Source of the DNA: a virus
Strand: one strand, 5' to 3'
Length of the DNA: 35,851 nucleotides
Virus genome (UHGV): UHGV-0135983
The translations under genes and the position numbers were made by a program. Of the stretch, positions 3,322 through 33,650 are shown in pieces; position 1 is the stretch's first letter, and each line of letters opens with the position of its first letter. The notes under the pieces are model-generated. The model saw only the letters and a list, made by a program, of their open reading frames with translations, did no database searches and was not told the DNA's origin.

Positions 3322-4932
3322 CTAATAATCTACGGCGACCATGTGATCGCCATCGTTTGGTTGCCAATGTTCCCGCGCCTGTGCGGTCGGAATCCCGACC
3401 AATTTACCTATACGTACCGGAGTTGAGCTGATAGCACCGGAGCCGGAGTCGATAAAGTCATCGGGCTGATTAGTCAGCGCCGGGTTAAAGTCTCGCATCT
3501 GGTCGTACATTGGGCCGTCGAGCACGTCGGTGTGCGCCCAAAGGAACCGCGACGACAGCGGCGCTTCGAAGGCATCGAGGATGCGTTTCTGTTTATTGGT
3601 CACGCTGAATTCTTCCCGGACGCCGCAACCTGTACCCTTCAACGCCTGAATCAGCAATTTGCCGGCGAAGCTGCCCGGGCCGTTCACCTCGACGCAAATC
3701 AGGGGGATCTGATACTTCAACACCAGCTCTTTAATCTGCATCACCTGACCGCCGGTGATTTTGTCGTTGTCGTCAAATTCTGCCAGTTCGCCCGTAAGCC
3801 CCTGGCAAACATGCCAGTACAGATGCCCGCGCGCGTCGGTGAAAATCAGAGAGAACGCCGAGGCGTCGGCCTTAACTTTGCCGGTGGCCACATCCCACCA
3901 GGCGACAGCACCAACAATTTGCGTCTGGCCAAGCCACATCGAACAGGAGCGGTTCGCGTATCGGATTTCAGGCTGAACGTTGTATTCTCGGATACGGTCA
4001 GGATCAAGACGAACCTCGCCAACCGGTTTACTGTGCAGCTGGTACTGACTGTCCCATTCGTTAATTGTGCGAGTCTCGCGGCGGCGCTTTGTCATTTCCT
4101 CCGGAGTGAATCTTTCCGGCCATTCACAATCGGCGTAACAGTCAACCGTGGTACCGGGAGCCTCGGCAAACTCGATACCATCATCGTTAAGACGATAATC
4201 AACACCTTCAACGAGCAGTCGCGCGCCAATGTGAATACCGACGAAAACATATTCAGGCCGGAACGGTAACGAGTAACGGCTAGCGGTAGCCTGTTTTTCC
4301 TCGATGCGAAATTCTTTGCCGAATAGTTTGATGGTCAGACAGTCGGCGCCCATAGATTCAACCTCATCGTAAAGGCTATCGTGGGTATGCGGCGTGCCGA
4401 TAAACAGCTTTCGCCCGCCGGGGACAAGAATGTGTGTCTGTTCACCCAGACGATAACGCAGCTTTTCCCGCGCCTCCGGCGTCTGGATATTCCGGGGCAC
4501 TTCTACGTCATCGTTCTGACATTCATCGGCACGGGCCGAGGTGACGTTAGAGAGGATCCCCTTTGCGTACATGCTGCCGTTACGCATATCCAGCGAGCCG
4601 TTAACCCACCATTGCTCAACGGTTCCCTGTCCGTCGGGTAGCATACCTTTGGTCAGCGGATGATTGCGTAAAACGTTCTGCGTATCGCGGCTGGTTTTGT
4701 ACGCGGTGCCGTCAGCTTCAGACTGGTGAAGAATGCGGTACTGGCGGTTCTGGTAATATCGCCATGCGTTATACACCGCCAGAATGGTGGATTTTCCGAA
4801 GCCACGGAAACAGCGAAGCACCGCGAGATCCCCGCGGTGTTCCAGCCAGTGGCAGGCTCGATAATGGCAGTCGGGAACCTCCCACCCCATCCGCTCCGCC
4901 CATATGATGAAAAAGGCGACGAATGAAATCAT
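3322..4932 (-). CDS. terminase large subunit (putative)
   Basis: 536 aa; Walker A-like RGFGKSTILA near N-terminus, acidic Walker B-like ADECQNDD; sits between a small putative TerS and the tail fiber. Confidence 0.6.
   Translation of the reverse strand: MISFVAFFIIWAERMGWEVPDCHYRACHWLEHRGDLAVLRCFRGFGKSTILAVYNAWRYYQNRQYRILHQSEADGTAYKTSRDTQNVLRNHPLTKGMLPDGQGTVEQWWVNGSLDMRNGSMYAKGILSNVTSARADECQNDDVEVPRNIQTPEAREKLRYRLGEQTHILVPGGRKLFIGTPHTHDSLYDEVESMGADCLTIKLFGKEFRIEEKQATASRYSLPFRPEYVFVGIHIGARLLVEGVDYRLNDDGIEFAEAPGTTVDCYADCEWPERFTPEEMTKRRRETRTINEWDSQYQLHSKPVGEVRLDPDRIREYNVQPEIRYANRSCSMWLGQTQIVGAVAWWDVATGKVKADASAFSLIFTDARGHLYWHVCQGLTGELAEFDDNDKITGGQVMQIKELVLKYQIPLICVEVNGPGSFAGKLLIQALKGTGCGVREEFSVTNKQKRILDAFEAPLSSRFLWAHTDVLDGPMYDQMRDFNPALTNQPDDFIDSGSGAISSTPVRIGKLVGIPTAQAREHWQPNDGDHMVAVDY
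3385..3402 (-). promoter_or_regulatory. conserved late-junction element copy 2 (GGTCGGAATCCCGACCAA), inside terminase 3' end, upstream of tail fiber
   Basis: Same invariant 11-mer; lies within the last ~27 codons of the upstream CDS, 84 nt before the fiber ATG at 3304. Confidence 0.5.
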
Positions 4933-5270
4933 TTTTTCCGCTGTTGTATGCGTTCGATAACTTCCTGTGCTGCACGTTCAGCGGCAGATACCTGTTGGCC
5001 CAGGCGGAATGCTTCATCGTCCGGATCCTCGCCGGGTTTAGGCGTTCCCCCGCGCGTATGCATGCCAATCAGCGAATGGACTTTTACCAGCAGGGTTAGC
5101 GATGCGGCCGCATTCTTCTTATGCCAGTACCGATCGCCGCGTTCCTGTTTGGTGTGCTTTGTGACTTCCTTCCCTGCCCCCGGCCAGTTATCCGGATCGG
5201 CTTCTTCAAGAACTACATCGGTGAGCTTATCGCTAAGAGCGGTCAGGCGGGTTTTGTAATCTGAATGCAT
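4929..5270 (-). CDS. terminase small subunit (putative, by position)
   Basis: 113 aa, immediately upstream of and overlapping the putative TerL start; no recognisable motif. Confidence 0.35.
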   Translation of the reverse strand: MHSDYKTRLTALSDKLTDVVLEEADPDNWPGAGKEVTKHTKQERGDRYWHKKNAAASLTLLVKVHSLIGMHTRGGTPKPGEDPDDEAFRLGQQVSAAERAAQEVIERIQQRKK

Positions 5271-5317
5271 AAAAAAGCCCCGTGGTTATCCATAGGGCTA
5301 TAATGTGCCGGGCTAGA

Positions 5318-5333
5318 GGTCGGAATCCTGACT
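5318..5333 (-). promoter_or_regulatory. conserved late-junction element copy 3 (GGTCGGAATCCTGACT), upstream of putative TerS
   Basis: Same invariant 11-mer, 45 nt upstream of the ATG at 5270. Confidence 0.5.
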
Positions 5334-5404
5334 ATTGCATATGCAGCGATGTACGTATAAAACTAGCCGACATTAATATAATCATTTTCATTCAGAGGCT
5401 CCCT

Positions 5405-14963: not shown

Positions 14964-14992
14964 TGAAAAAAGGCCGGGAGATATCCCCCGGC
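14964..14992 (-). terminator. intrinsic terminator after the capsid gene (T-phi-like position)
   Basis: On - strand: GCCGGGGGATATCTCCCGGC hairpin followed by CTTTTTTC. Confidence 0.7.
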
Positions 14993-15008: not shown

Positions 15009-15920
15009 TTATGCTACGAAATCGATGGCGACTACTTTGTTTTCCGCTGCGCGGCCTGCACCATAGGACGCATCGACGGAAATCTGAATGGTGTTGTTTT
15101 TATCGCGGCGCGGGCCGATATCGACGTTGTACTCTTCGCCGGTACCAAAATGCACAGCAGATTTACACCAGGCTGCGGCGGTTTTGGTGGTTACAGCGGG
15201 ATCACCTGCTGAAGCAGAATCCAGTTTTTCATACGCCAGCCACTTAAAGCCCAGCCAGTTACCAGACACTGCGCCTTCCTGCAGCATTTTCACTGCCATA
15301 AAGTCGGCGCTGGTCAGCGTGGTATCGCTGAGGATTTGGGTCAGCATGTCGGCGTTGTAGGTGATATACAGCTCTTCACCGTTCTGCTCGTCACACTCGT
15401 TACGGCGGAACATGGCTTTCGCGGCGATCAGCTTCGCTTTGGTCATCCCTGTACCGCCAGCAACGATTTTCTGCGATGCAGGCAAGGCAACTGGAGCGTA
15501 CGCGCCAGTATTGGAGGTTTTACGCAGAACGGTATCGAGCAGCGCGCGATAAATAACATCGTCTTTTTTGCGGTTGGATGCGGCCAGCGTCAGCTGCAAA
15601 TATGGCCCCTGCGGGTCAGCCAGCAGTTTGCGCAGGTCGCGCTTTTCCACTGGCACGAATACGCCATAGTCAGCCATCAGCGCATTACGGGTGCCGGCAT
15701 CAGGCAGATCCCAGACGGTATCACCGAAACGCTCGGTGATCTGGGTCATTTCGATGGTACCCATATCGTTGATGGTGAACGACGCACCGGTAATATTGCC
15801 ACGGTCGTAAACAGCAGCTTGCAGGCGGGAATCCTTCTGCTGTGCGGCAATTTCGAAAGAATCATGGAACTGCTGAACAAACGCAGCGGTGATCATGTTC
15901 TTAGCGGTATCAAATGACAT
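15009..15920 (-). CDS. major capsid protein (T7 gp10-like)
   Basis: Start at MSFDTAKNMITAAF with GGAGTGA RBS; 303 aa; pattern ELYITYNADMLTQIL resembles gp10 VFYCDPDSYSAIL. Confidence 0.8.
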   Translation of the reverse strand: MSFDTAKNMITAAFVQQFHDSFEIAAQQKDSRLQAAVYDRGNITGASFTINDMGTIEMTQITERFGDTVWDLPDAGTRNALMADYGVFVPVEKRDLRKLLADPQGPYLQLTLAASNRKKDDVIYRALLDTVLRKTSNTGAYAPVALPASQKIVAGGTGMTKAKLIAAKAMFRRNECDEQNGEELYITYNADMLTQILSDTTLTSADFMAVKMLQEGAVSGNWLGFKWLAYEKLDSASAGDPAVTTKTAAAWCKSAVHFGTGEEYNVDIGPRRDKNNTIQISVDASYGAGRAAENKVVAIDFVA

Positions 15921-16068
15921 AACAATCACTCCAGAAAGTATCGCCTGCGGGGTATCGGTTTCCCGGCCCAAATCAGCACAATGCGGTTGGCGCTGGCGCA
16001 TTGCGGGAAAATCAGGTATCCGGCGTCCCCGCCGGGCTGGTTGTGGAGTGATTGTTAGCGAGGAGAGC

Positions 16069-16084
16069 GGTCGGAATCCCGACC
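16069..16084 (-). promoter_or_regulatory. conserved late-junction element copy 4 (GGTCGGAATCCCGACC), in capsid leader
   Basis: Same invariant 11-mer, ~150 nt upstream of the capsid ATG; leader also has a 12-bp inverted repeat pair at 15921..15932 and 16047..16058. Confidence 0.5.
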
Positions 16085-16109
16085 AAATGAGCGAAAGTAA
16101 GCCGTGCTG

Positions 16110-16994
16110 TTACCCTCTGGGTTCTTTTATCCTATAACCTGTGCCAGGCATGAATTCATCAATAACTCTTGCCGCGTGACCTATAACTCGAAACGCTGAG
16201 CGTGCTTCTTCATCGGTAATTTTAGTCGCTTTAGTCGGGTCATAATCAGGAGTTTGGTCATCGTCAAAATGTACTCGATAGCCAAATTTTGATATTTCTC
16301 TGAAAATGGAACTAACTGACCTATCAATAGTTGCCATAGTGTCCATTAATCTATTTTTATCCTCCTCAATTTTATTTTTTATTTTCTCATAAGGGCCTAG
16401 CTCATCTACTAAATCTTTAAGAGCATCCGACTTAGAATTTATTTCACCTTCAATTTCATTAAGTTTCCCTTCCGCCAACTCAAGCTTCGAACTTAAAATA
16501 TTAAATTGTTCTTCAGCTTCTTCATATGACTTCTTAATGCTCTCGATATCATGTGTAACTTTAGTAACCTTGAGTTCTTCTTCTGCATTCCTTTTTGCAA
16601 ACAGAGATGTTTGATAAGCTAGTGCGCTATCTGCTTTAGCTGTGTATTCAGCAATGATTTCACGAGCCTCACTCTCAGATTTTGCCCTTTTGATATCGTT
16701 ACCATCAGCGATTTTTTGCGCGCATCTTTGAAAAAAACTCACAGCATGACTAGCATAAGGAAAAAGAACGGCAATAATAAAACCCAAAAGGATAGGAGCA
16801 ACTACAGAATACCAAAAAATACATGGTTCACTTTTCACTTTAATGATTCTATCTTGTAGTTCTCCACTACCCATTAAAACTATCAATAAACTATCCCAGT
16901 TAAACCCCAGCCATGAGAGGACTATGAACCCGAAAAGAGGAGTGTTTATTCTTTGAATTAAAGTTTTCTTTACCGCATCAGCTAATTCGTCCAT
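16110..16994 (-). CDS. membrane-anchored coiled-coil protein (AT-rich moron between scaffold and capsid)
   Basis: 294 aa; two predicted TM helices then a long Glu/Lys-rich coiled-coil region; visibly AT-rich; AAGGG RBS; candidate promoter and an upstream terminator. Confidence 0.6.
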   Translation of the reverse strand: MDELADAVKKTLIQRINTPLFGFIVLSWLGFNWDSLLIVLMGSGELQDRIIKVKSEPCIFWYSVVAPILLGFIIAVLFPYASHAVSFFQRCAQKIADGNDIKRAKSESEAREIIAEYTAKADSALAYQTSLFAKRNAEEELKVTKVTHDIESIKKSYEEAEEQFNILSSKLELAEGKLNEIEGEINSKSDALKDLVDELGPYEKIKNKIEEDKNRLMDTMATIDRSVSSIFREISKFGYRVHFDDDQTPDYDPTKATKITDEEARSAFRVIGHAARVIDEFMPGTGYRIKEPRG

Positions 16995-17063
16995 ACGCTT
17001 ACCCTTATGAAGAAACTATCGAAGGATATTTAAGAGTAAAAGGCAAGAAAAGTCATTAACTTT

Positions 17064-17095
17064 AAATAGAAAAAGCCAGCGAAGTTATACTGGCC
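17064..17095 (-). terminator. putative intrinsic terminator after scaffold gene
   Basis: On - strand: GCCAG...CTGGC hairpin followed by TTTTTCTATTT. Confidence 0.45.
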
Positions 17096-17115
17096 TTTGA
17101 TATTACCGTGGCGTG

Positions 17116-17964
17116 TCACACTACGGTTTGCTCGCCGTAACGCTTCTGGTAGTACGCTTTAACCTGTGCAGATACGCGTTCATGGTCGGTATGCTTCGGA
17201 TTCATGTACGCTTCGGACTTCATCAGGTCGCGGATTGATTGCTGCTCTGCCGGGTTGCTGTCTGCGCCCGCTGGCGCGTCTTCCTGCATTTCCGCACCGA
17301 TTTTCGCCAGCATGCGGATCACCATCGGGTTATTGCCGATTTCATCAATGCGGCCGCGATCACCTTCATCGGTCAGGGAATTGAACGCGCGGAAAGCCAG
17401 ACCGATATTCTTGTTAAATTCCGCGTCAGTCTTCCAGACTTCGCGCAGCTGCGTGGTGGCCGCCTCCGAATCCAGCGCCGCGGCGCCGTTGACCAGTTCA
17501 GGCGCAATCTGCGCGTATTCGCTGATAATAAATCCCATCTGATCGTTAGTGATGCCCTTGGCGTGCGCCGACTTCATGAATGATTGCATGCGGGGATCGG
17601 CCTTGAACTCGTCCCAGTTGAAGCCCTCGGCCTTCACCTCAGGTGCATAATCATCTGCCGTTTTCGGCGGCGCGTCGCCGCTGCCCATGCGCTTTTCAAG
17701 GTGCGAGTAAGCATGCGCCAGTTTGCGGGCAGAGCCTTCAATGTCGAGTTTTCCACCTTCGCCCATAACGCGGTATTTTTCAGGTATCCAGTCATTCGCG
17801 CCCGGTTCGCCCGCTCCGGTGCTGAGAAGTGTATTGCCAGCAGAATTATCAGCGCCCTGATTTTCAGTACCACCGCCATTGCCACCATCATTACCCCCTG
17901 TGCTGCCTGCTGGCGCTTCGGCGCCCTGCTCGGCGTTCATGAATAAGTGTTTAATCTTCCACAT
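17116..17964 (-). CDS. scaffolding protein (T7 gp9-like)
   Basis: 282 aa, acidic, Gly/Ala-rich N-terminus, between portal and capsid. Confidence 0.6.
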   Translation of the reverse strand: MWKIKHLFMNAEQGAEAPAGSTGGNDGGNGGGTENQGADNSAGNTLLSTGAGEPGANDWIPEKYRVMGEGGKLDIEGSARKLAHAYSHLEKRMGSGDAPPKTADDYAPEVKAEGFNWDEFKADPRMQSFMKSAHAKGITNDQMGFIISEYAQIAPELVNGAAALDSEAATTQLREVWKTDAEFNKNIGLAFRAFNSLTDEGDRGRIDEIGNNPMVIRMLAKIGAEMQEDAPAGADSNPAEQQSIRDLMKSEAYMNPKHTDHERVSAQVKAYYQKRYGEQTVV

Positions 17965-18184
17965 CGTCGTTTACTCCATCTACACGGTTGATTTGCATCA
18001 GAATGAAATCGAGCACGGCACGTTGTCCGGCCCGGTAACAGGTTTCGCGGTCGCCCTCGGCGCCGCCGGGAACGTATGCCGCACGCCCGAATCGGCGCGT
18101 TAAATCATCCAGTACCTGCGTGCCGCCCGGCATTTCCTCGAAAATGCGTTTGTAGTCCGCCGGTGATACTTGTTTAGTAGCCAT
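17951..18184 (-). CDS. hypothetical small protein between portal and scaffold
   Basis: 77 aa ORF, start overlaps portal stop. Confidence 0.4.
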   Translation of the reverse strand: MATKQVSPADYKRIFEEMPGGTQVLDDLTRRFGRAAYVPGGAEGDRETCYRAGQRAVLDFILMQINRVDGVNDDVED

Positions 18185-19806
18185 TAACCCCCCGCTACTC
18201 GTTGGCCCAGTGCTGCGCCTGCCTGCTGCCCTGCGGCGGTTGCCGCTTCGCTACCTGCCTGCATCATTAGCGCTTGCCCTGCCTGTTGCTGCTGCGCCTG
18301 CTGGCGCTGCTGGCGAAGTTGCTCGACGGCATCAGACGAGCGAATGACTTTCGCCGGTACGCCCAGCGCATCCGCTATCACGCGGGTCGCTTCGTCGGTG
18401 TCGATTAGGTCGGTGACTTCTGGTGATACCTGCGCCAGATTGGCCACGTTCGCGCCAAGGCGTTCAATAGCGGTGACGTTTTCCAGCTGCTGCGCGCGGG
18501 CAAGCGGCGAGATATAGCGCACGTTGAAATTGGCGTTTTGCAGGCTATCCGGCGCTGGCGGGAATACACCGGCGCGGAATGCCAGACCGAAACAGCGTTC
18601 TACCAGTGGTTGCAGGTATTCAGCCTGGAATCGGCCATAGACCGGGCCGAGCAGCTGGCGGATCAGCGCGACACGCACATGCACTTCGGTAGCGGTCATT
18701 GCCGGGCCGTCCTGCGGTTGCAGCTGGTCGGCCATCATGATTTTGCGGATCGACGCCTGCAGGCGTTCTTCTGCAGTAAACGCCACGTTGAAATCGGCGC
18801 CGGTGAGCAACGGTTTCATGCTGTCTACGCTGTTCGCCACGATGATGCGGCGCGGGCCGACCTTGACCGTGCGCGGATTGAGTACGCCGTCATCTTCGGC
18901 AATCCACATCCCGGCGATAGCCAGATCCTGCGCGGCTTTCTCCATGCGCTTCGTTTCGTTCAGCTCTTTGCAGTCCGGCAGCGCGTCGTATACCGGGCCG
19001 ATACCGTACGGCGTGCCGGGGATTTTCATCCAGCGCGGTACGCAGCAGGGGAATTCGTGATAGCCGGATTCGCGCACGATGAGCTTGCCGCTCACCTCCA
19101 CGTTGTACGATGCAAAGCGCAGGTTTTTAGCCAGGCGCGCATTCACCACGTAGTTTTCACGCGGGAAAATGCAGTGCAGGAAGTCGAATTTGTCATCCGG
19201 CTTTTTGGCGGCTGCGTCGCGAATCTTCTTGCTGACCTTATCCGCGCCGAATTCTTTAATCGCCTGCTCTGCGGTGAGCTGGTAGCGGCGATAAATCGTG
19301 TCCACGATGCCGTCGCGACGGGTGGAAGTGACAAAGCACTGCGCCAGCGGCCACTGCTGGAACGAGAATCCGCCCTCTTCGCGGTCTTCGTCGATGTACA
19401 GCGCAAACCAGCCAGCACACACCACATCGAGATTCACCTCGTAGCCTTCGGCGTCGAAATTGGCGGCGTGGATGTTTTCCCATACCAGCGTTGCGCAGGT
19501 GGACAACCACGCGGCGGCATCATCCGGCAGCGATTCGCTGTCGAGGTTCAGCCACTGCGCGTTTGCCGGGGTCATGCCGGACATGAGAGCAGACGCCAGC
19601 ATGCGGGCGCTGTCGGTGGCCGTGCCGTCAAGCAGCCGTGCCACCTTCGATTTCGCGCTCTGTGCGTCCAGCACCTCATCGGATAGCCCCGCGCCGCGCA
19701 GCGGATAGGTGTAGTCGTAGCATTCCCGCCAGACACTTTCGTGCACCTGTCGGTTGGCTTTCAGCGTATCGGCACGCTTAACCAGCTTTACGGCGAGTTC
19801 ATCCAT
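18184..19806 (-). CDS. portal / head-to-tail connector (T7 gp8-like)
   Basis: 540 aa (T7 gp8 is 536 aa); position upstream of scaffold and capsid. Confidence 0.75.
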   Translation of the reverse strand: MDELAVKLVKRADTLKANRQVHESVWRECYDYTYPLRGAGLSDEVLDAQSAKSKVARLLDGTATDSARMLASALMSGMTPANAQWLNLDSESLPDDAAAWLSTCATLVWENIHAANFDAEGYEVNLDVVCAGWFALYIDEDREEGGFSFQQWPLAQCFVTSTRRDGIVDTIYRRYQLTAEQAIKEFGADKVSKKIRDAAAKKPDDKFDFLHCIFPRENYVVNARLAKNLRFASYNVEVSGKLIVRESGYHEFPCCVPRWMKIPGTPYGIGPVYDALPDCKELNETKRMEKAAQDLAIAGMWIAEDDGVLNPRTVKVGPRRIIVANSVDSMKPLLTGADFNVAFTAEERLQASIRKIMMADQLQPQDGPAMTATEVHVRVALIRQLLGPVYGRFQAEYLQPLVERCFGLAFRAGVFPPAPDSLQNANFNVRYISPLARAQQLENVTAIERLGANVANLAQVSPEVTDLIDTDEATRVIADALGVPAKVIRSSDAVEQLRQQRQQAQQQQAGQALMMQAGSEAATAAGQQAGAALGQRVAGG

Positions 19807-20509: not shown

Positions 20510-20806
20510 TCATTGTGTGTTGCCCTTCTGGTCAGTTTCCCGACCAAAAACAGGGCGGCGGAACGTCCACCACTGCCGATAAAGCACTGTGGGGAGTTTT
20601 TTACGGTCTGAGCTGGTAGCCAGACACCAGAGAGCGATAAGTGCCTCACCGTGACCGTGGCGAGGTTCTGATCCGGATTTCCAACCGAGAACGGCAGATT
20701 TCGAAACGCCAAGTTCATCGGCGATTTGCTGAGTGGTGAGGTTTTTTCGTGTCAGGTCAGTAATGACTCTGAACCAGTCTGTACGGAAGGTGGCGACCAG
20801 CGGCAT
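20510..20806 (-). CDS. HTH DNA-binding protein (possible late regulator)
   Basis: 98 aa; helix-turn-helix-like LTTQQIADELGVSKSAVLGW; AGGGGG RBS. Confidence 0.5.
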   Translation of the reverse strand: MPLVATFRTDWFRVITDLTRKNLTTQQIADELGVSKSAVLGWKSGSEPRHGHGEALIALWCLATSSDRKKLPTVLYRQWWTFRRPVFGRETDQKGNTQ

Positions 20807-25924: not shown

Positions 25925-27331
25925 TTAAAATGCATCGGTATTGAATTTCTCAGAGTATTTACGGGGTTGTTTCCGGGGTTTCGCGGCCTCCAGTTGGATA
26001 CGTGTTTTCTCTTTGCCAACATGCTGATCCATTGACAGAAAGTGTCCGTTTTTAAATTCCTGATAAATAATTGCTCCTGCGGCGCTGAAGCGGCTTTTAC
26101 CCAGGATAATTTCAGCGACGCCAGCCGCCGGGCTTTCCGGGTTGTAAACCTCATCGCGGTACAGAAACATGATGCTGTCGGCGTCCTGCTCAATGGATCC
26201 GGAATCACGCAGGTCTGACATGACCGGGCGACGCTGAGCCGCAGGGCGGGAATCGACGGCGCGGGAAAGCTGGCTAAGCGCGAACGTCGGCGTATGCAGG
26301 CGCATAGCCATAGTTTTTAGGTTTCGGGATATGTGGGCGATCGCAAGGTCGTTACGCTCTGCCTTCGGTTTTTTAATCAGGCCAACGTAATCGACAACGA
26401 TCATCGCCAGATGCGGATACCGGCGCTTATGCGTTTCGGCAACGGCGCGGATTTGCTCAATCGTCAGATCGGTAGCATCAACGATCCAGATATCGCGCCC
26501 GTTCATGGTCTCCATGGCCGCTGTAAAGCGCGCCCAGTCCTCGTCCTGCATATCGAGGGGATTACGCAGGCGTGACACTGACATGTTTCCAGAACCCGCC
26601 AGAGAGCGTTCTACGATTTGCGCAGCGGCCATTTCCATGCTGAATATCAACGCGCCACCGCCGGCAGCGGTAACACCATCGACAATCTTCAGCGCAAATT
26701 CTGTTTTACCCATACCCGGACGCCCAGCGACGACAATCAAATCCTGCAGGTTAATTCCGCCGGTCGCATCGTCCAGTTCCTCGATCCCGGTTTTCAGGTT
26801 TCGGGTGCCCTCTTCGCCGTCCATGCGCTTCTGCATGGTTTCCATGTACACCGGCAATAATTCGCTCATGTGTACCGGCTGCACGTCGCCAGTGTCGCCG
26901 GTCATGTCCAGCAGCTGCGCAACGGCAGTTTCGACAACCTGATCGCGCTGTTCCTGGTTTATCGCATCACGAATACCATCCGCACCATCCTGCAGTAATT
27001 GCGCGATGGTTCTGCTTCGCCAGGCCTTAACCATTTTTTTGGCGTAGCCTTTGAGATTGACAATCGATGTCGGGAATTTGCAAATATCGGCGAGATTGGC
27101 CAGCGTCCCCTGTCCGCCAATGGCTTCGCTAATGTACATCATGTCAATTAAGCCGCCGCTCAAGGCCTGCGCTTTGATCACACCGTAAATCTGCCTGTAG
27201 TATGCGACGCTGAAAGCTTCGCTCGGAGTGCTGGCAATCACATCAAAGGCGTCTGGCGTGGCGCCACCGTTCATCAGGCAGCCAAGAACCAGACATTCCA
27301 GCTCCTGAGTGGAATACATCATCTGCATCAT
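25925..27331 (-). CDS. replicative DNA helicase (DnaB family)
   Basis: 468 aa; Walker A GRPGMGKTEFALK; DnaB-like C-terminal blocks; overlaps initiator stop. Confidence 0.85.
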   Translation of the reverse strand: MMQMMYSTQELECLVLGCLMNGGATPDAFDVIASTPSEAFSVAYYRQIYGVIKAQALSGGLIDMMYISEAIGGQGTLANLADICKFPTSIVNLKGYAKKMVKAWRSRTIAQLLQDGADGIRDAINQEQRDQVVETAVAQLLDMTGDTGDVQPVHMSELLPVYMETMQKRMDGEEGTRNLKTGIEELDDATGGINLQDLIVVAGRPGMGKTEFALKIVDGVTAAGGGALIFSMEMAAAQIVERSLAGSGNMSVSRLRNPLDMQDEDWARFTAAMETMNGRDIWIVDATDLTIEQIRAVAETHKRRYPHLAMIVVDYVGLIKKPKAERNDLAIAHISRNLKTMAMRLHTPTFALSQLSRAVDSRPAAQRRPVMSDLRDSGSIEQDADSIMFLYRDEVYNPESPAAGVAEIILGKSRFSAAGAIIYQEFKNGHFLSMDQHVGKEKTRIQLEAAKPRKQPRKYSEKFNTDAF

Positions 27332-28317
27332 AAAGCGCCCTCCCTGGTCTTACGCAATGTCTCTGGTTTCATCAGATAGTCAAAGCTGGCGCGCCATCCG
27401 CCATTTTCACCAAAGTAAAAATCGGAGGCGTCAGCGCGGAATTTTTCGAAATAGCCCAGAAATGCGCCCGTGGTTTTGTTTTTCATATGGGCGGCCAGAC
27501 GGGTGATCATCCGGCGGCGGTCTGTGTCCAGTTCAGCAGCAGGCAGAACGTCAGCAAAAATTTCGTTGTAGCCGTTCATAACGGCTTCCGGATCAATATC
27601 GGTTTCGGTCACCGCCCATGCTTCAGCGTCAGCGAGATAACCATCAAAGCGGTTTACCCGGCAGATGTTCGCTGGCTTCGGCAGGCTATCGCCACGGCGG
27701 CGCCATGTGGCCAGCACCCAGCGGATAACTAACTGCAATTCGTCCAGGGTGTACCCTTCCCGGGTGGTGGTCGGCGTCAGCATCATCACAAACGGTTTCA
27801 GGTCACGGCAGCGGGTACCGGTTTGCTCGTTGTAAAATTCCAGCGCTTTTTTAGCATCAGAATTAATTTTTTCATCGCCTTCCCCCGTCTGGGGGTTAGG
27901 GGGATCTTTAGGTTCTATGACTGGTTCAAAAGAGTGACTGGTTCTGGTGCCGCCACACGGCATAGGGGCTATGCTTTTTGGCGGCATACCTGTGCTTTCT
28001 GACGGCATAGGGGCTATGCTTTTTGGCGGCATAGGGTTATCAAGTTTCATACAGTACAAATTCGACGCGTTACCCTTCCCGTTTTTTACGCCCGGGCGAT
28101 TTTCTTTCACCAGCAGGCCCATGGAAATTAACGCATCGATATGGTCACGCACCGCGCTTTTGCTGCACTCGCAGTGATCCGCAATATGTTTGTAAGACGG
28201 CCAGCATTCGCCGTAATCATTGGCGTTATCAGCCAGTTTGATCAGCACCAGTTTTCGAATCGGGTTTCCGGTCTTGATTGCCATTGCTTTGGCCATAAGC
28301 GTCATACTCATAGTCAA
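27328..28317 (-). CDS. replication initiation protein (HTH N-terminus, lambda O-like role)
   Basis: 329 aa; N-terminal HTH-like region; internal peptide repeat PMPPKSIAPMP x2 coinciding with DNA iterons; conserved phage replication C-terminal region. Confidence 0.7.
   Translation of the reverse strand: MTMSMTLMAKAMAIKTGNPIRKLVLIKLADNANDYGECWPSYKHIADHCECSKSAVRDHIDALISMGLLVKENRPGVKNGKGNASNLYCMKLDNPMPPKSIAPMPSESTGMPPKSIAPMPCGGTRTSHSFEPVIEPKDPPNPQTGEGDEKINSDAKKALEFYNEQTGTRCRDLKPFVMMLTPTTTREGYTLDELQLVIRWVLATWRRRGDSLPKPANICRVNRFDGYLADAEAWAVTETDIDPEAVMNGYNEIFADVLPAAELDTDRRRMITRLAAHMKNKTTGAFLGYFEKFRADASDFYFGENGGWRASFDYLMKPETLRKTREGAL
27958..28037. repeat. iteron-like direct repeats inside the initiator gene (candidate ori)
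   Basis: CGGCATA core at 27958, 27982, 28003, 28027 (21-24 bp spacing); two ~31-bp units CGGCATAGGGGCTATGCTTTTTGGCGGCATA. Confidence 0.6.
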
Positions 28318-30426: not shown

Positions 30427-30769
30427 GGGAAAGACCGCAACGAACATCCATTGCTGTGTGTAGTCTTGGCCGGGCGCCCCGGGCATTTTTTTAACACAGT
30501 AACGATTTATGCGACCCTTCAGTGAAAACTGAAGCCCTCGAAAAGAGGGACCCCGTGAGGAAAGACCAGTGAGCCTGACCAGCTCTGGCGCCGGGAAAGA
30601 CCGGGAGGAAAGACCAATGACCTACGGGCATGACCAGCCCTGACAGCCGGGAAAGACCGGCAACCTTTAGATGGCAAAAGGCCCGCACAAGGCGGGCCAG
30701 TTACCCCGAACGGTGACCAAACCATTCGGACTTATCACAAGCGACCAAGCTTGTGATGAGGAAAGACCA
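30427..30769 (+). repeat. cluster of six GGAAAGACC motifs in apparently non-coding DNA
   Basis: GAGGAAAGACCA at 30557, 30605, 30758 (each followed by GTG/ATG and a short in-frame ORF); GGGAAAGACC at 30427, 30593, 30649; 22-bp inverted repeat TCACAAGC-N6-GCTTGTGA at 30735..30756. Confidence 0.6.
30463..30490 (+). terminator. putative intrinsic terminator
   Basis: GC-rich hairpin CCGGGCGCCCCGGG followed by T7 run. Confidence 0.5.
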
Positions 30770-30824
30770 ATGCCGACAGAGTCAACACTGATCGGCTCTG
30801 AGTATACATCAACAAGGAGTCGCT

Positions 30825-31401: not shown

Positions 31402-31430
31402 CCTGCGCCAGTAACTAAGAGGAAAGACCA

Positions 31431-33650
31431 ATGACCATCTACAACGGCTTATTTGAGCCAAAGAAATCGGCGATTAAAGACTGCGGCGCCGTGCAGCTGG
31501 CGATCGCCATCGATGCGCCAAACAAAAAAGTGGCCGAAAGCATTATGACCGGCAAACTCTGGGAATCATACCCGGCCAATGGTGACAACTATTTCAAACC
31601 GAAACTGTGGGAACACGTTGAAGGCCAGCCGCTGCCGACCGTTGGCCAGTTCGATGAGTCATTCGCCCAGCAGCATACTTTTGACGGTGAAAAATGGGTT
31701 TCTACTGCGCAGGATAGCGCTTCCGGAAGCAGTGCAGGTTTACCTGCCGACGATGAAGTGATCGACCTGATGACCGTTTCCGCAGAGGAACGCTTTGCTG
31801 CCGTCCTGCTTTTTAGCACCGCTGCGATTGATGGCCATCTTTATTCTCAGGTTGTGGATTATCTGGATAACCTGAAAAACCACGATGGCGAATTTGAAGA
31901 GGAAGATCGCTTTAACTTTAATGTGCTGTGCGCCCTACAAAATAACTTCCCGGTTCAAAGCATGCATGTGGAAGGTCTGAATAACCTTGTTCAGGGGATT
32001 TTCTCCCACTTTGAAAACCAGACGCCAGGCAAAGCGGCTATCTCTCAGTTCGTTAAACGCTGGCTTGAGAATCCGGGCAAGCGCGACGAACTGGCCCCCG
32101 GCGTATATAAAAATACCGCTCTCAGCACCAGCACCAGCACCAGCACCGATGATAAAACACCCGTGGTAATTTCTAAGCGGGGTTATAAACACACATATGC
32201 AACGCTGGATCAGGAGATCGCTACCGCCCTTCTCCCGCTGGCGCCTGATGCGCCGGTACTATCCGGAAACCTTCTGGACGCTAAGAAGATGATTGCCGAT
32301 GACCGGGAAGATTTTAAACGCTGGTCTGCATCGCTGCACACCACTCCGCAGATACTCAAATATGACCGCGCCAGCATCTTCGGTGTAGTGCAGAACGTAC
32401 CGGCGAAAGATACCTACCATTTCCCTGACAGCCTGCGCCGCCATATCGATTCATGGCTGGAGGCCAACGGCCGCTTTGAAGAAACCGATACAGGATCCGT
32501 TAAACAGACAGAGGCAACGCAAAATATCGCCTCAAACGTGGGCGAAAAAGCGGAAGTGCCGCAGACGGTTGTAACCGATAACCAAGCGAAACAGGCGCGT
32601 GAGGCGCTCAACGATATGGGCTATGGCGTATATGCATCTGGTGAAGGTGCGGAACCGGAAGATAAGTTAAGCGTTAAGGCTGAGAAAATAGCAGATGAAG
32701 CTGCTCGTTTGTCTCGTGATATTAACCTCAAAGATCGCATGCCAGATGCCGGAGATTTGATTCCAGCAATTCAACCAAATGAAAATATAGCCTCAAAAAA
32801 AATTGAATCATATCTATCTGAATTGAATGACGACCAGGCCAAAGCAAACCTTAGCGTCTGGAATCGCGTCCAGCGCACAGATCCGGCCTTCGTCGAAAAG
32901 AACAGTTTCGGCGCAGGGCTTCACTCAATCCGGGCGCAGTACATGCTGATGCGCGCAACGGAAGTTCTCGGAATGGAAGGAACCGGTTGGGGCGTTGATA
33001 TCAAAGAAGAGCGCATAGATCGAGGTGTGCCGCTTATGGAGCCAATACAGGACCAATCAGGAAAAATAATTGGCCAGAAACCGGTAAGGGACGGGGATGG
33101 CTCATTATTCTGTTTATCCGTACATACAATTCGGATTGAACTCTGGTACCTGCGAGACGGAAAGAAGGGGCGCATTCCGGCCTATGGACATACGGATTAC
33201 ATCACCAAGGGTGGTGATGGTGCATTAAAAATGGAGAAAGAAGCCGCCAAAAAATCACTGACTGACGCTACAACCAAAGCACTATCCCATCTCGGATTTG
33301 GTGCAGACGTGTACATGAACATGCATAACGACAACGAATACACTTCAAAATTGAATGAGATATTCGAAATCAAAAAAGCCAGCGAAAGCATAGAAGATAT
33401 AGTGCGACTTCGTCAGGAATTAGACGACGATCTTACCTCCGTTGCTGAAACCCTATCTACTGGCGTGACTGTTAACGAAGTTGAAAAGGTTTTTGGCACG
33501 ATAGCCCGAAAACTCGAAGTTCACCGCAAGGATGCAGAATCAAAAGGCGATACACAGCGCTCTCGGTACCTCAGTGGCCGGTTGCGCCGCCTGACTGAAA
33601 TCAAAAATGGACGTCTCGCCGAACTAAATAAATCCGAGGAGAAAGCATAA
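31431..33650 (+). CDS. Erf-family single-strand annealing protein with ~480-aa N-terminal extension
   Basis: 739 aa; C-terminal region has Erf-like blocks NSFGAGLHSIRAQYM and KALSHLGFGADVY (cf. P22 Erf NSFGKYKYR / LNGLFGIDD); start preceded by GAGGAAAGACCA; (AGCACC)x4 encodes an STSTSTST linker. Confidence 0.6.
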   Translation: MTIYNGLFEPKKSAIKDCGAVQLAIAIDAPNKKVAESIMTGKLWESYPANGDNYFKPKLWEHVEGQPLPTVGQFDESFAQQHTFDGEKWVSTAQDSASGSSAGLPADDEVIDLMTVSAEERFAAVLLFSTAAIDGHLYSQVVDYLDNLKNHDGEFEEEDRFNFNVLCALQNNFPVQSMHVEGLNNLVQGIFSHFENQTPGKAAISQFVKRWLENPGKRDELAPGVYKNTALSTSTSTSTDDKTPVVISKRGYKHTYATLDQEIATALLPLAPDAPVLSGNLLDAKKMIADDREDFKRWSASLHTTPQILKYDRASIFGVVQNVPAKDTYHFPDSLRRHIDSWLEANGRFEETDTGSVKQTEATQNIASNVGEKAEVPQTVVTDNQAKQAREALNDMGYGVYASGEGAEPEDKLSVKAEKIADEAARLSRDINLKDRMPDAGDLIPAIQPNENIASKKIESYLSELNDDQAKANLSVWNRVQRTDPAFVEKNSFGAGLHSIRAQYMLMRATEVLGMEGTGWGVDIKEERIDRGVPLMEPIQDQSGKIIGQKPVRDGDGSLFCLSVHTIRIELWYLRDGKKGRIPAYGHTDYITKGGDGALKMEKEAAKKSLTDATTKALSHLGFGADVYMNMHNDNEYTSKLNEIFEIKKASESIEDIVRLRQELDDDLTSVAETLSTGVTVNEVEKVFGTIARKLEVHRKDAESKGDTQRSRYLSGRLRRLTEIKNGRLAELNKSEEKA

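Follow-up and report, generated by a model that had tools for sequence, protein, structure and literature searches.

A predicted late promoter and a probable scaffold-linked operator RNA ahead of the capsid gene in a BPP-1/YeP4-like phage

The viral genome UHGV-0135983, a stretch of 35,851 nucleotides (nt) that we call the window, is a temperate podovirus or prophage of the BPP-1/YeP4-like kind and carries its late genes on the minus strand. Here we consider the interval at positions 15,921 to 16,084, the leader of the major capsid protein gene, for which an initial annotation had proposed control of capsid expression through an inverted repeat able to sequester the Shine-Dalgarno (SD) sequence. 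Its observation was partly confirmed by our analysis and its interpretation partly supported. Taken as a whole, the interval is probably best explained as a late promoter followed by an operator RNA that is linked to the phage scaffold, with the fold-back helix formed by the repeat in a secondary role; this reading is drawn from comparative sequence analysis. The capsid cassette would comprise, in this order, an activator-type late promoter, a transcription start at A16044, a 101-nt structured RNA beginning 5 nt further on, an A/U-rich linker, the SD and the AUG.

16013..16039, minus strand: module M1, with outer helix CAG/CUG, bulged C16036, inner helix CCGGCG/CGCCGG and GGGA loop
15977..16005, minus strand: hairpin H2, with a variable stem of 9 base pairs (bp), all 9 showing compensatory changes, and the conserved loop CCAGCGCCAAC
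15949..15969, minus strand: module M2, with outer helix GGG/CCC, bulged C15966, inner helix CGG/CCG and GAAA loop
15940..16040, minus strand: the whole structured leader RNA, 101 nt, scored by models R1 (111 bits) and R2 (98 bits)
15009..15920, minus strand: major capsid protein gene, 303 amino acids (aa), PHROG 3437 (E = 2e-121)

Relatives were gathered via the capsid protein; about 180 loci, taken from both genomes and viral contigs, were available for comparison. Covariance-model searches found a single copy of the structured RNA in each phage, in every case immediately 5' of the capsid gene. The stretch enclosed by the arms of the inverted repeat is far better conserved than its flanks in prophages of Enterobacterales, Orbaceae, Moraxellaceae, Pseudomonas and Burkholderiales. 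In the model-based alignment 93% of the cells are paired, as against 23-40% in slid controls, and compensatory changes occur in 23 of the 28 pairs; a set of 48 mostly non-enteric sequences yields 88.5% against 29-42%, with 21 of 24 pairs compensatory. The G-U pairs lie on the sense strand, and the structure therefore belongs to that strand. Against Rfam 15, neither the window nor 20 loci gave a match at gathering score, and three divergent loci gave nothing at E <= 1; at E <= 10 the window had a single match, to an implausible small nucleolar RNA. The leader RNA represents a previously undescribed, putatively cis-regulatory RNA family, common in prophages of Klebsiella, Enterobacter, Serratia and Burkholderiales. 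Model R1, trained on enteric sequences, missed some distant members (L037, L134), for which R2 was built, and further variants (L034, L158-160, L171-174) were recognised by eye and by neither model.

The two modules M1 and M2 share a near-identical helix-internal-loop design, a C opposite AYAM, and are placed on either side of H2. Their 3' internal loops read AUAC, at 16019-16016 in M1 (specificity nucleotide C16016) and at 15955-15952 in M2 (specificity nucleotide C15952); the bulged C and the loop positions A1 and A3 are invariant across 75 distinct sequences. The outer helix of M1 was found unaided by RNAalifold, with pair types CG:22, AU:6 and GC:3. Sites for CsrA, a kink-turn and a GNRA-receptor interaction were considered for the modules, and none of them fits the invariant C and the A-Y-A-M loop. 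Tentatively, the H2 loop (GCGCC) may form a pseudoknot with GGCG at 15945-15942: its pairs are 87% formed and show little covariation, and many betaproteobacterial members, read by eye, carry an A-G mismatch there. A coding function of the leader, in which the in-frame ATG at 16001 would open a 330-aa open reading frame (ORF), was rejected; this ATG is absent from relatives and the region shows RNA-type covariation, while the capsid N-terminus MSFD/MPFD/MAFD is kept among relatives. The ATG sits within hairpin H2, the mechanical ORF list starts the capsid at it, and annotation pipelines could mis-call the start in the same way. Two loci show the RNA in altered surroundings: in L161 (1733-2000) a small ORF is inserted between leader RNA and capsid gene, and L047 (2064-3672) is a decayed prophage with truncated scaffold and capsid genes in which the RNA is still kept.

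The state of the two loops is tied to the product of a late gene further upstream.

17116..17964, minus strand: scaffold-like head-assembly protein, 282 aa, PHROG 3742
17665-17796, minus strand: putative RNA-binding module of that protein, residues 57-100 (Tyr64 at 17773-17775, Ala85 at 17710-17712)

The fourth loop nucleotides of M1 and M2 agree, being both C or both A, in 69 of 70 enteric leaders, with a mutual information (MI) of 0.90 bit. This covariation is one of identity and not of complementarity, which hints at a single ligand present in two copies. Among approximately 2,000 protein positions in six flanking genes, the seven most strongly associated with the loop state all fall within scaffold residues 17-98, with residues 64 (MI 0.77), 85 (0.74) and 84 (0.59) at their head. 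Tyr at residue 64 goes with C loops and Phe or Leu with A loops; likewise, Ala or Gly at residue 85 goes with C and Ser or Asn with A. Over 71 distinct combinations the counts for residue 64 are:

Loops C/C: Tyr64 in 36, not Tyr64 in 6
Loops A/A: Tyr64 in 0, not Tyr64 in 24

The roughly 550 nt that separate the scaffold region from the leader hold more than 200 variable sites at background (mean normalised MI 0.06-0.12), and the first capsid codons, which adjoin the leader, are likewise unassociated with the loop state. The switch of loop and residues recurs in four separate backgrounds, each at least 97% identical otherwise, and it is seen again in distant beta- and gammaproteobacterial lineages, including PDQF/PEQY variants. 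RNA and protein module also occur together: Acinetobacter prophages, Piluca and vB_EcoM_APEC, in which the capsid gene comes straight after the assembly gene, have no leader RNA, and the assembly proteins of these RNA-less relatives, 195-229 aa long, are missing exactly residues ~57-100. From the co-variation and the co-occurrence we infer that the scaffold protein binds the capsid mRNA leader.

A scaffold dimer would contact the leader RNA via residues 57-100, one subunit on each of the modules M1 and M2. Residues 64 and 85 would read the fourth loop nucleotide, Tyr with Ala or Gly specifying C, and Phe or Leu with Ser or Asn specifying A. We lean towards the view that this module of about 45 aa is a new sequence-specific RNA-binding domain, the dimer of which reads the twin loops of the capsid leader by an evolvable code. 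M2 ends 29 nt and the GGCG tail 22 nt before the AUG, which is within reach of the 30S subunit, and a bound protein would therefore sit at the edge of the 30S footprint. From there it might make the translation of the capsid mRNA, or its stability, depend on how much free scaffold is available. The effect of binding could be repression, stabilisation or activation, or a capture in cis of nascent capsid protein; the position of the operator suits repression, and the need to avoid scaffold-free capsid suits activation or cis-capture. Control of capsid expression, which the initial annotation had proposed, is likely to exist at a post-transcriptional level, exerted by the far better conserved structured RNA that it had seen as a GC hairpin (16020-16035, which is indeed present); the pairing of the repeat to which it had been ascribed shows no covariation above slid controls.

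Several observations weigh against this account. The operator ends 22-29 nt 5' of the AUG and does not overlap the SD. The Fisher test of loop state against Tyr64 treats the combinations without correction for phylogeny. Four or five enteric loci, among them the inducible YeP4-6 (L001/L002/L130), combine C/C loops with Phe64 and Ser85, and mixed C/A loops occur at five loci; all leaders with mixed loops also have Phe (or Cys/Tyr), a pattern which suggests that Phe/Ser proteins tolerate either base and that Tyr/Ala proteins need C. On the protein side, the AlphaFold 2 model, with a disordered G/N-rich N-terminus, the module as a predicted beta-hairpin plus helix, and a helical body, is poor, its predicted local distance difference test score of 41.5 being too low for a fold search. 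Searches of PDB and Pfam with the module were empty, and no known RNA-binding domain was matched.

The 282-aa protein is treated here as scaffold-like. It shares its C-terminal part with the 'capsid assembly protein' of vB_EcoM_APEC, and related records name it 'endoprotease' or 'capsid assembly protein', the 'protease' labels reflecting weak similarity. The window protein has no Pfam match, and against the T7 gp9-like scaffolds (PF05396) the homologue in L036 scores 20.1 bits, under the cut-off of 27.1.

If the proposed binding is true, procapsid assembly would be wired directly to capsid translation, either by feedback on initiation or stability or by scaffold tethered to the mRNA. To our knowledge, control of the capsid to scaffold ratio in tailed phages is known in outline only for P22, without a defined RNA target. 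The present system would offer a defined RNA of 101 nt, a module of 45 aa and a switch of two residues and one nucleotide that has been flipped many times in evolution; as an orthogonal RNA-protein pair it may in addition be of use in engineering.

In P22, translational autoregulation has been linked to the N-terminus of the scaffolding protein (bioRxiv 10.1101/2022.12.13.520362). As in P22, the N-terminal part of the scaffold would here take part in a post-transcriptional control that links assembly to synthesis; unlike P22, where the scaffold controls its own mRNA, the target would be the mRNA for the capsid protein, with a defined RNA on one side and a defined protein module on the other. 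We know of no defined RNA motif for P22 scaffold autoregulation, and no sequence relationship between the P22 system and the present one was found. The arrangement also recalls the hairpin operators of the MS2 and PP7 coat proteins and the operators of T4 gp32 and RegA, in that a structural or abundant phage protein, here presumably as a dimer, would read a small RNA structure near a start codon sequence-specifically. It differs from them in its two helix-internal-loop sites, in an RNA of 101 nt with three helices placed 22-29 nt 5' of the AUG, in belonging to a double-stranded DNA temperate podovirus, and in a protein fold that is unrelated or unknown.

Upstream of the RNA lies the promoter from which the capsid mRNA is expected to start.

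16070..16083, minus strand: palindrome GTCGGGATTCCGAC, presumed activator site, centred near -32.5
16051..16056, minus strand: -10-like hexamer AACAAT, 13 nt after the palindrome
16044, minus strand: predicted transcription start A, 7 nt past the hexamer, placed by promoter geometry

The palindrome is the element that had been listed as late-element copy 4. It belongs to a late promoter design consisting of a 14-bp palindrome GTCRGGAWWCYGAC, 13 nt and the hexamer NANNNT, of which the window holds five copies (1162, 3385, 5318, 16069 and 20530), each 5' of a late-gene block on the minus strand. All five hexamers (TACCCT, GAACAT, CATTAT, AACAAT and CACAAT) conform to NANNNT, and in YeP5 all four palindrome copies have NANNNT at exactly 13 nt, with differing hexamers; A2 and T6 are kept and the remaining positions vary. 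The same layout is found in betaproteobacterial relatives, and in Orbaceae relatives that use another palindrome. The structured RNA starts 5-7 nt past the equivalent of the predicted start in enteric, Orbaceae and betaproteobacterial relatives alike. At the capsid promoter no sigma-70 pair of -35 and -10 elements was called, there being no -35 match, and we read the arrangement as a probable activator-dependent late promoter. A role of the palindrome as a boxB-like RNA hairpin was rejected, since its half-sites vary without compensation (GTCAG/CCGAC), which makes it a DNA site.

The five late promoters extend over 1162-1180, 3385-3403, 5318-5336, 16069-16087 and 20530-20548, and an ORF of 98 aa resembling a helix-turn-helix protein is located at 20510-20806. 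Within the capsid leader itself, the DNA of M2 (GCCGGGAAACCGAT; 15949-15969) resembles the late palindrome and is followed 13 nt on by TACTTT (15934-15939), or by TAATTT in YeP5 (L130 21490-21530). A weak second activator site or promoter directly before the SD is conceivable; palindrome-like M2 DNA was not seen in the betaproteobacterial members. The leader of the 5318 promoter (5270-5317, minus strand) contains a terminator-like hairpin and T-run, AGCCCTATGGATAACCACGGGGCTTTTTT, ending at the start codon of a 113-aa ORF, which could be an attenuator or a 5' stabiliser.

14973..14992, minus strand: strong intrinsic terminator directly 3' of the capsid gene, with an 8-bp stem, 7 GC pairs and a T6 run

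Beyond this terminator lie about 9 kb of tail and internal-virion genes without a preceding late palindrome, so that the tail genes appear to depend on read-through, as do the T7 genes at T-phi. The T7 gene 10 cassette consists of the phi10 promoter, a leader with a 5' stem-loop, a strong ribosome-binding site (RBS) and the terminator T-phi. In both phages the capsid gene thus stands apart as a unit of high output: it has a promoter to itself, its transcript begins with a structure, and the terminator behind it limits expression of the tail genes. Unlike that of T7, the promoter described here would serve host RNA polymerase with an activator site, and the leader has a specific fold that is conserved and linked to a protein.

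The inverted repeat has to be set against this promoter map.

16044..16057, minus strand: upstream arm UAACAAUCACUCCA, covering the last spacer base, the -10 hexamer, the discriminator and +1
15920..15933, minus strand: downstream arm UGGAGUGAUUGUUA, covering the SD GGAG (15932-15929), the spacer and the A of the AUG

A 12-bp repeat had been noted over the capsid RBS at 15921..15932, and it exists; it is in fact a perfect repeat of 14 bp, in which 15920-15933 pairs with 16044-16057 across 110 nt, and it reaches 17 nt if one mismatch is allowed. In mRNA sense GGAGTGATTGTT occupies 15932..15921, immediately 5' of the capsid ATG (15920), and its complement AACAATCACTCC is located at 16056..16045, 2 nt lower than the 16047..16058 originally given. 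Across the 35,851 bases no other inverted repeat of at least 12 bp has its arms within 200 nt of each other. The duplex is predicted at -21.3 kcal/mol, with a z-score of -6.9 relative to shuffled upstream arms.

Positions -13 to +1 of the promoter make up the upstream arm, so that the mRNA initiated at the capsid promoter, given the predicted start, should not contain this arm. The assumption that both arms lie in the same leader is therefore at odds with the promoter map. Sequestration of the SD is expected for one class of transcript: in every RNA that includes the upstream arm the SD has a predicted probability of being unpaired of 0.000, as compared with 0.30 in RNA from A16044, which should be the main capsid mRNA. 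More generally, before an SD-sequestering helix is taken for a riboregulator, its location should be compared with that of promoters.

Only RNA entering from further upstream could form the fold-back helix, and in the window this would be transcripts of an inserted gene.

17071..17098, minus strand: intrinsic terminator after the scaffold gene, which in most relatives lies 6 nt before the palindrome
16110..16994, minus strand: inserted moron gene for a 294-aa coiled-coil protein, AT-rich, lying 3' of the scaffold-gene terminator and 5' of the capsid promoter

No terminator belonging to the inserted gene was found between its end (16110) and the capsid promoter, and its transcripts should consequently enter the capsid gene carrying both arms. 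Inward transcription here would come from this same-strand ORF, where most relatives have a terminator at that place instead. In such read-through RNA the 14-bp helix might lock the RBS, and the capsid would then be translated solely from promoter-initiated mRNA. A comparable device is the fold-back inhibition of read-through transcripts in IS10/Tn10, reportedly described by Davis, Simons and Kleckner in 1985. In IS10 only RNA from outside forms the helix, and such RNA is translationally silent. As in IS10, one arm lies 5' of the element's own predicted start and the other over the RBS; unlike IS10, the device would act on the capsid gene of a phage, with an upstream arm formed by the -10 and the discriminator themselves and a 110-nt loop that holds a structured RNA.

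A serious rival to silencing by fold-back is that the repeat has no function and is a by-product of independent constraints which line up by chance in this lineage, an A/T-rich -10 facing the A/U-rich spacer between SD and AUG and a C-rich discriminator facing the G-rich SD. We regard this as a realistic, though less likely, explanation. Across 70 distinct leaders the arms pair in 79% of cells, against 34-49% in slid controls, and their covariation score of 0.067 falls inside the range of those controls (0.033-0.098). Within the anti-SD, about 45% of relatives have lost the A-U pairs, and hexamer variants are found together with non-pairing spacers. Dinucleotide shuffles of the window (n=200) contain a 12-bp pair in 30% of cases and a 13-bp pair in 9.5%; against this rival, a repeat of at least 13 bp whose position also coincides with an RBS would be much less frequent than these 9.5%. 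In 64-68 of the 70 leaders, moreover, the SD keeps its four G-C pairs while adjacent promoter spacer bases vary, and a second clade carries a different 12-bp version (TTATCACTCCAA/TTGGAGTGATAA). Together with the flat covariation score, further findings speak against fold-back silencing: the commonest related haplotype has two central mismatches and a duplex of -12.3 kcal/mol, some relatives (L014, L016) lack any arm pairing, and stem strength shows no clear trend with the presence of an upstream terminator across loci. The helix is real yet lineage-specific and, if it acts at all, acts on read-through RNA; the repeat is a secondary device that possibly silences such RNA.

The structured RNA could also work independently of any protein, as a stabiliser against RNase E or as a put-like RNA for read-through into the tail genes, which we consider unlikely. 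It begins close to the predicted 5' end, at a distance of about 5 nt, and the strong terminator after the capsid gene, with no late palindrome before the 9 kb of tail genes, would give such an activity a use. The put RNA of HK022, of about 70 nt and two stem-loops, acts on RNA polymerase without a protein, and putL is likewise situated just 3' of its promoter (PMC9378689). As with put, a structured nascent RNA directly follows a phage promoter and terminators lie further on; unlike put, the leader RNA has 101 nt and three helices with twin internal loops, and it co-evolves with a phage protein. A function without protein leaves unexplained both the co-variation of loop and residues and the joint presence or absence of RNA and module. 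In one locus (L040 2855-2865), moreover, the RNA starts 3 nt past the scaffold stop codon, between genes and with no recognisable promoter.

Still less probable is the model that follows from the initial annotation, in which the normal capsid mRNA contains both arms and the 14-bp closing helix hides the SD until it is opened, whether by a protein on the enclosed RNA, as in Mu Com/mom, or by RNase III processing. The stem does dominate the predicted fold of any RNA with both arms, being present in the minimum free energy and centroid structures given by RNAfold for a 216-nt RNA, and the arms flank the conserved RNA exactly, so that a four-way junction would result. Among 43 enteric arm haplotypes about 30 pair better than shuffles, over a range from -21.3 kcal/mol to none. 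Against this stand the identity of the upstream arm with the -10 and discriminator of a promoter design that is repeated five times in the window and four times in YeP5, an arm covariation not above controls, and the finding that betaproteobacterial, Orbaceae and Pseudomonas members with the same RNA have no such closing helix.

A non-physical association of RNA and protein, due to a shared third partner such as a host factor or to joint transfer by recombination, would accord with the mosaic nature of phage genomes and with co-variation statistics uncorrected for phylogeny, and is about as improbable as the preceding model, as the signal is at background in the intervening 550 nt and in the capsid codons adjoining the leader, the switch recurs in near-identical backgrounds from the same host genera and again in Burkholderiales, and module and RNA are gained or lost together.

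The inserted gene upstream of the capsid promoter is foreign to its surroundings, with a GC content of 33-40% as compared with 52-60% in the flanks, and is absent from YeP5, L003 and most relatives. Its product has only weak matches, to coiled-coil parts of SMC-like defence proteins. The ORF at 16110-16994 was rejected as the scaffold gene, being an AT-rich insertion that most relatives lack. With its flanks the insertion covers 16092-17065, and the junction, '...TTTTTCATTTG' followed by GTCGGG, holds unrelated insertions in about 12 relatives and therefore looks like a moron hot spot.

18184-19806, minus strand: portal gene, the first in the late gene order

After the portal the late genes encode, on the minus strand, a Bbp19-like small protein, the 282-aa head-assembly protein and the major capsid protein, and then the tail region with tail tubular proteins A and B, internal virion proteins, the large terminase and the tail fibre. 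Among deposited phages the closest are YeP4-6, induced prophages of Yersinia whose capsid is 84% identical and which have modules in common with BPP-1, BcepC6B and Xfas53 (PMC8579659). Protein homologues come chiefly from Klebsiella, Raoultella and Enterobacter, and a search for near-identical phage DNA found none.

Two further sets of repeats were noted in the window. Tandem direct repeats of 32 nt and 23 nt at 27957-28036, with two copies of ACGGCATAGGGGCTATGCTTTTTGGCGGCATA at a distance of 45 nt, resemble iterons or operators and are placed inside or next to a 329-aa ORF (27328-28317). On the plus strand, GAGGAAAGACCAATGA is present in four copies (30553-30572, 30601-30620, 30754-30773 and 31415-31434) and represents a common block of SD, spacer and ATG before early ORFs of that strand, including the 739-aa ORF that starts at 31431.

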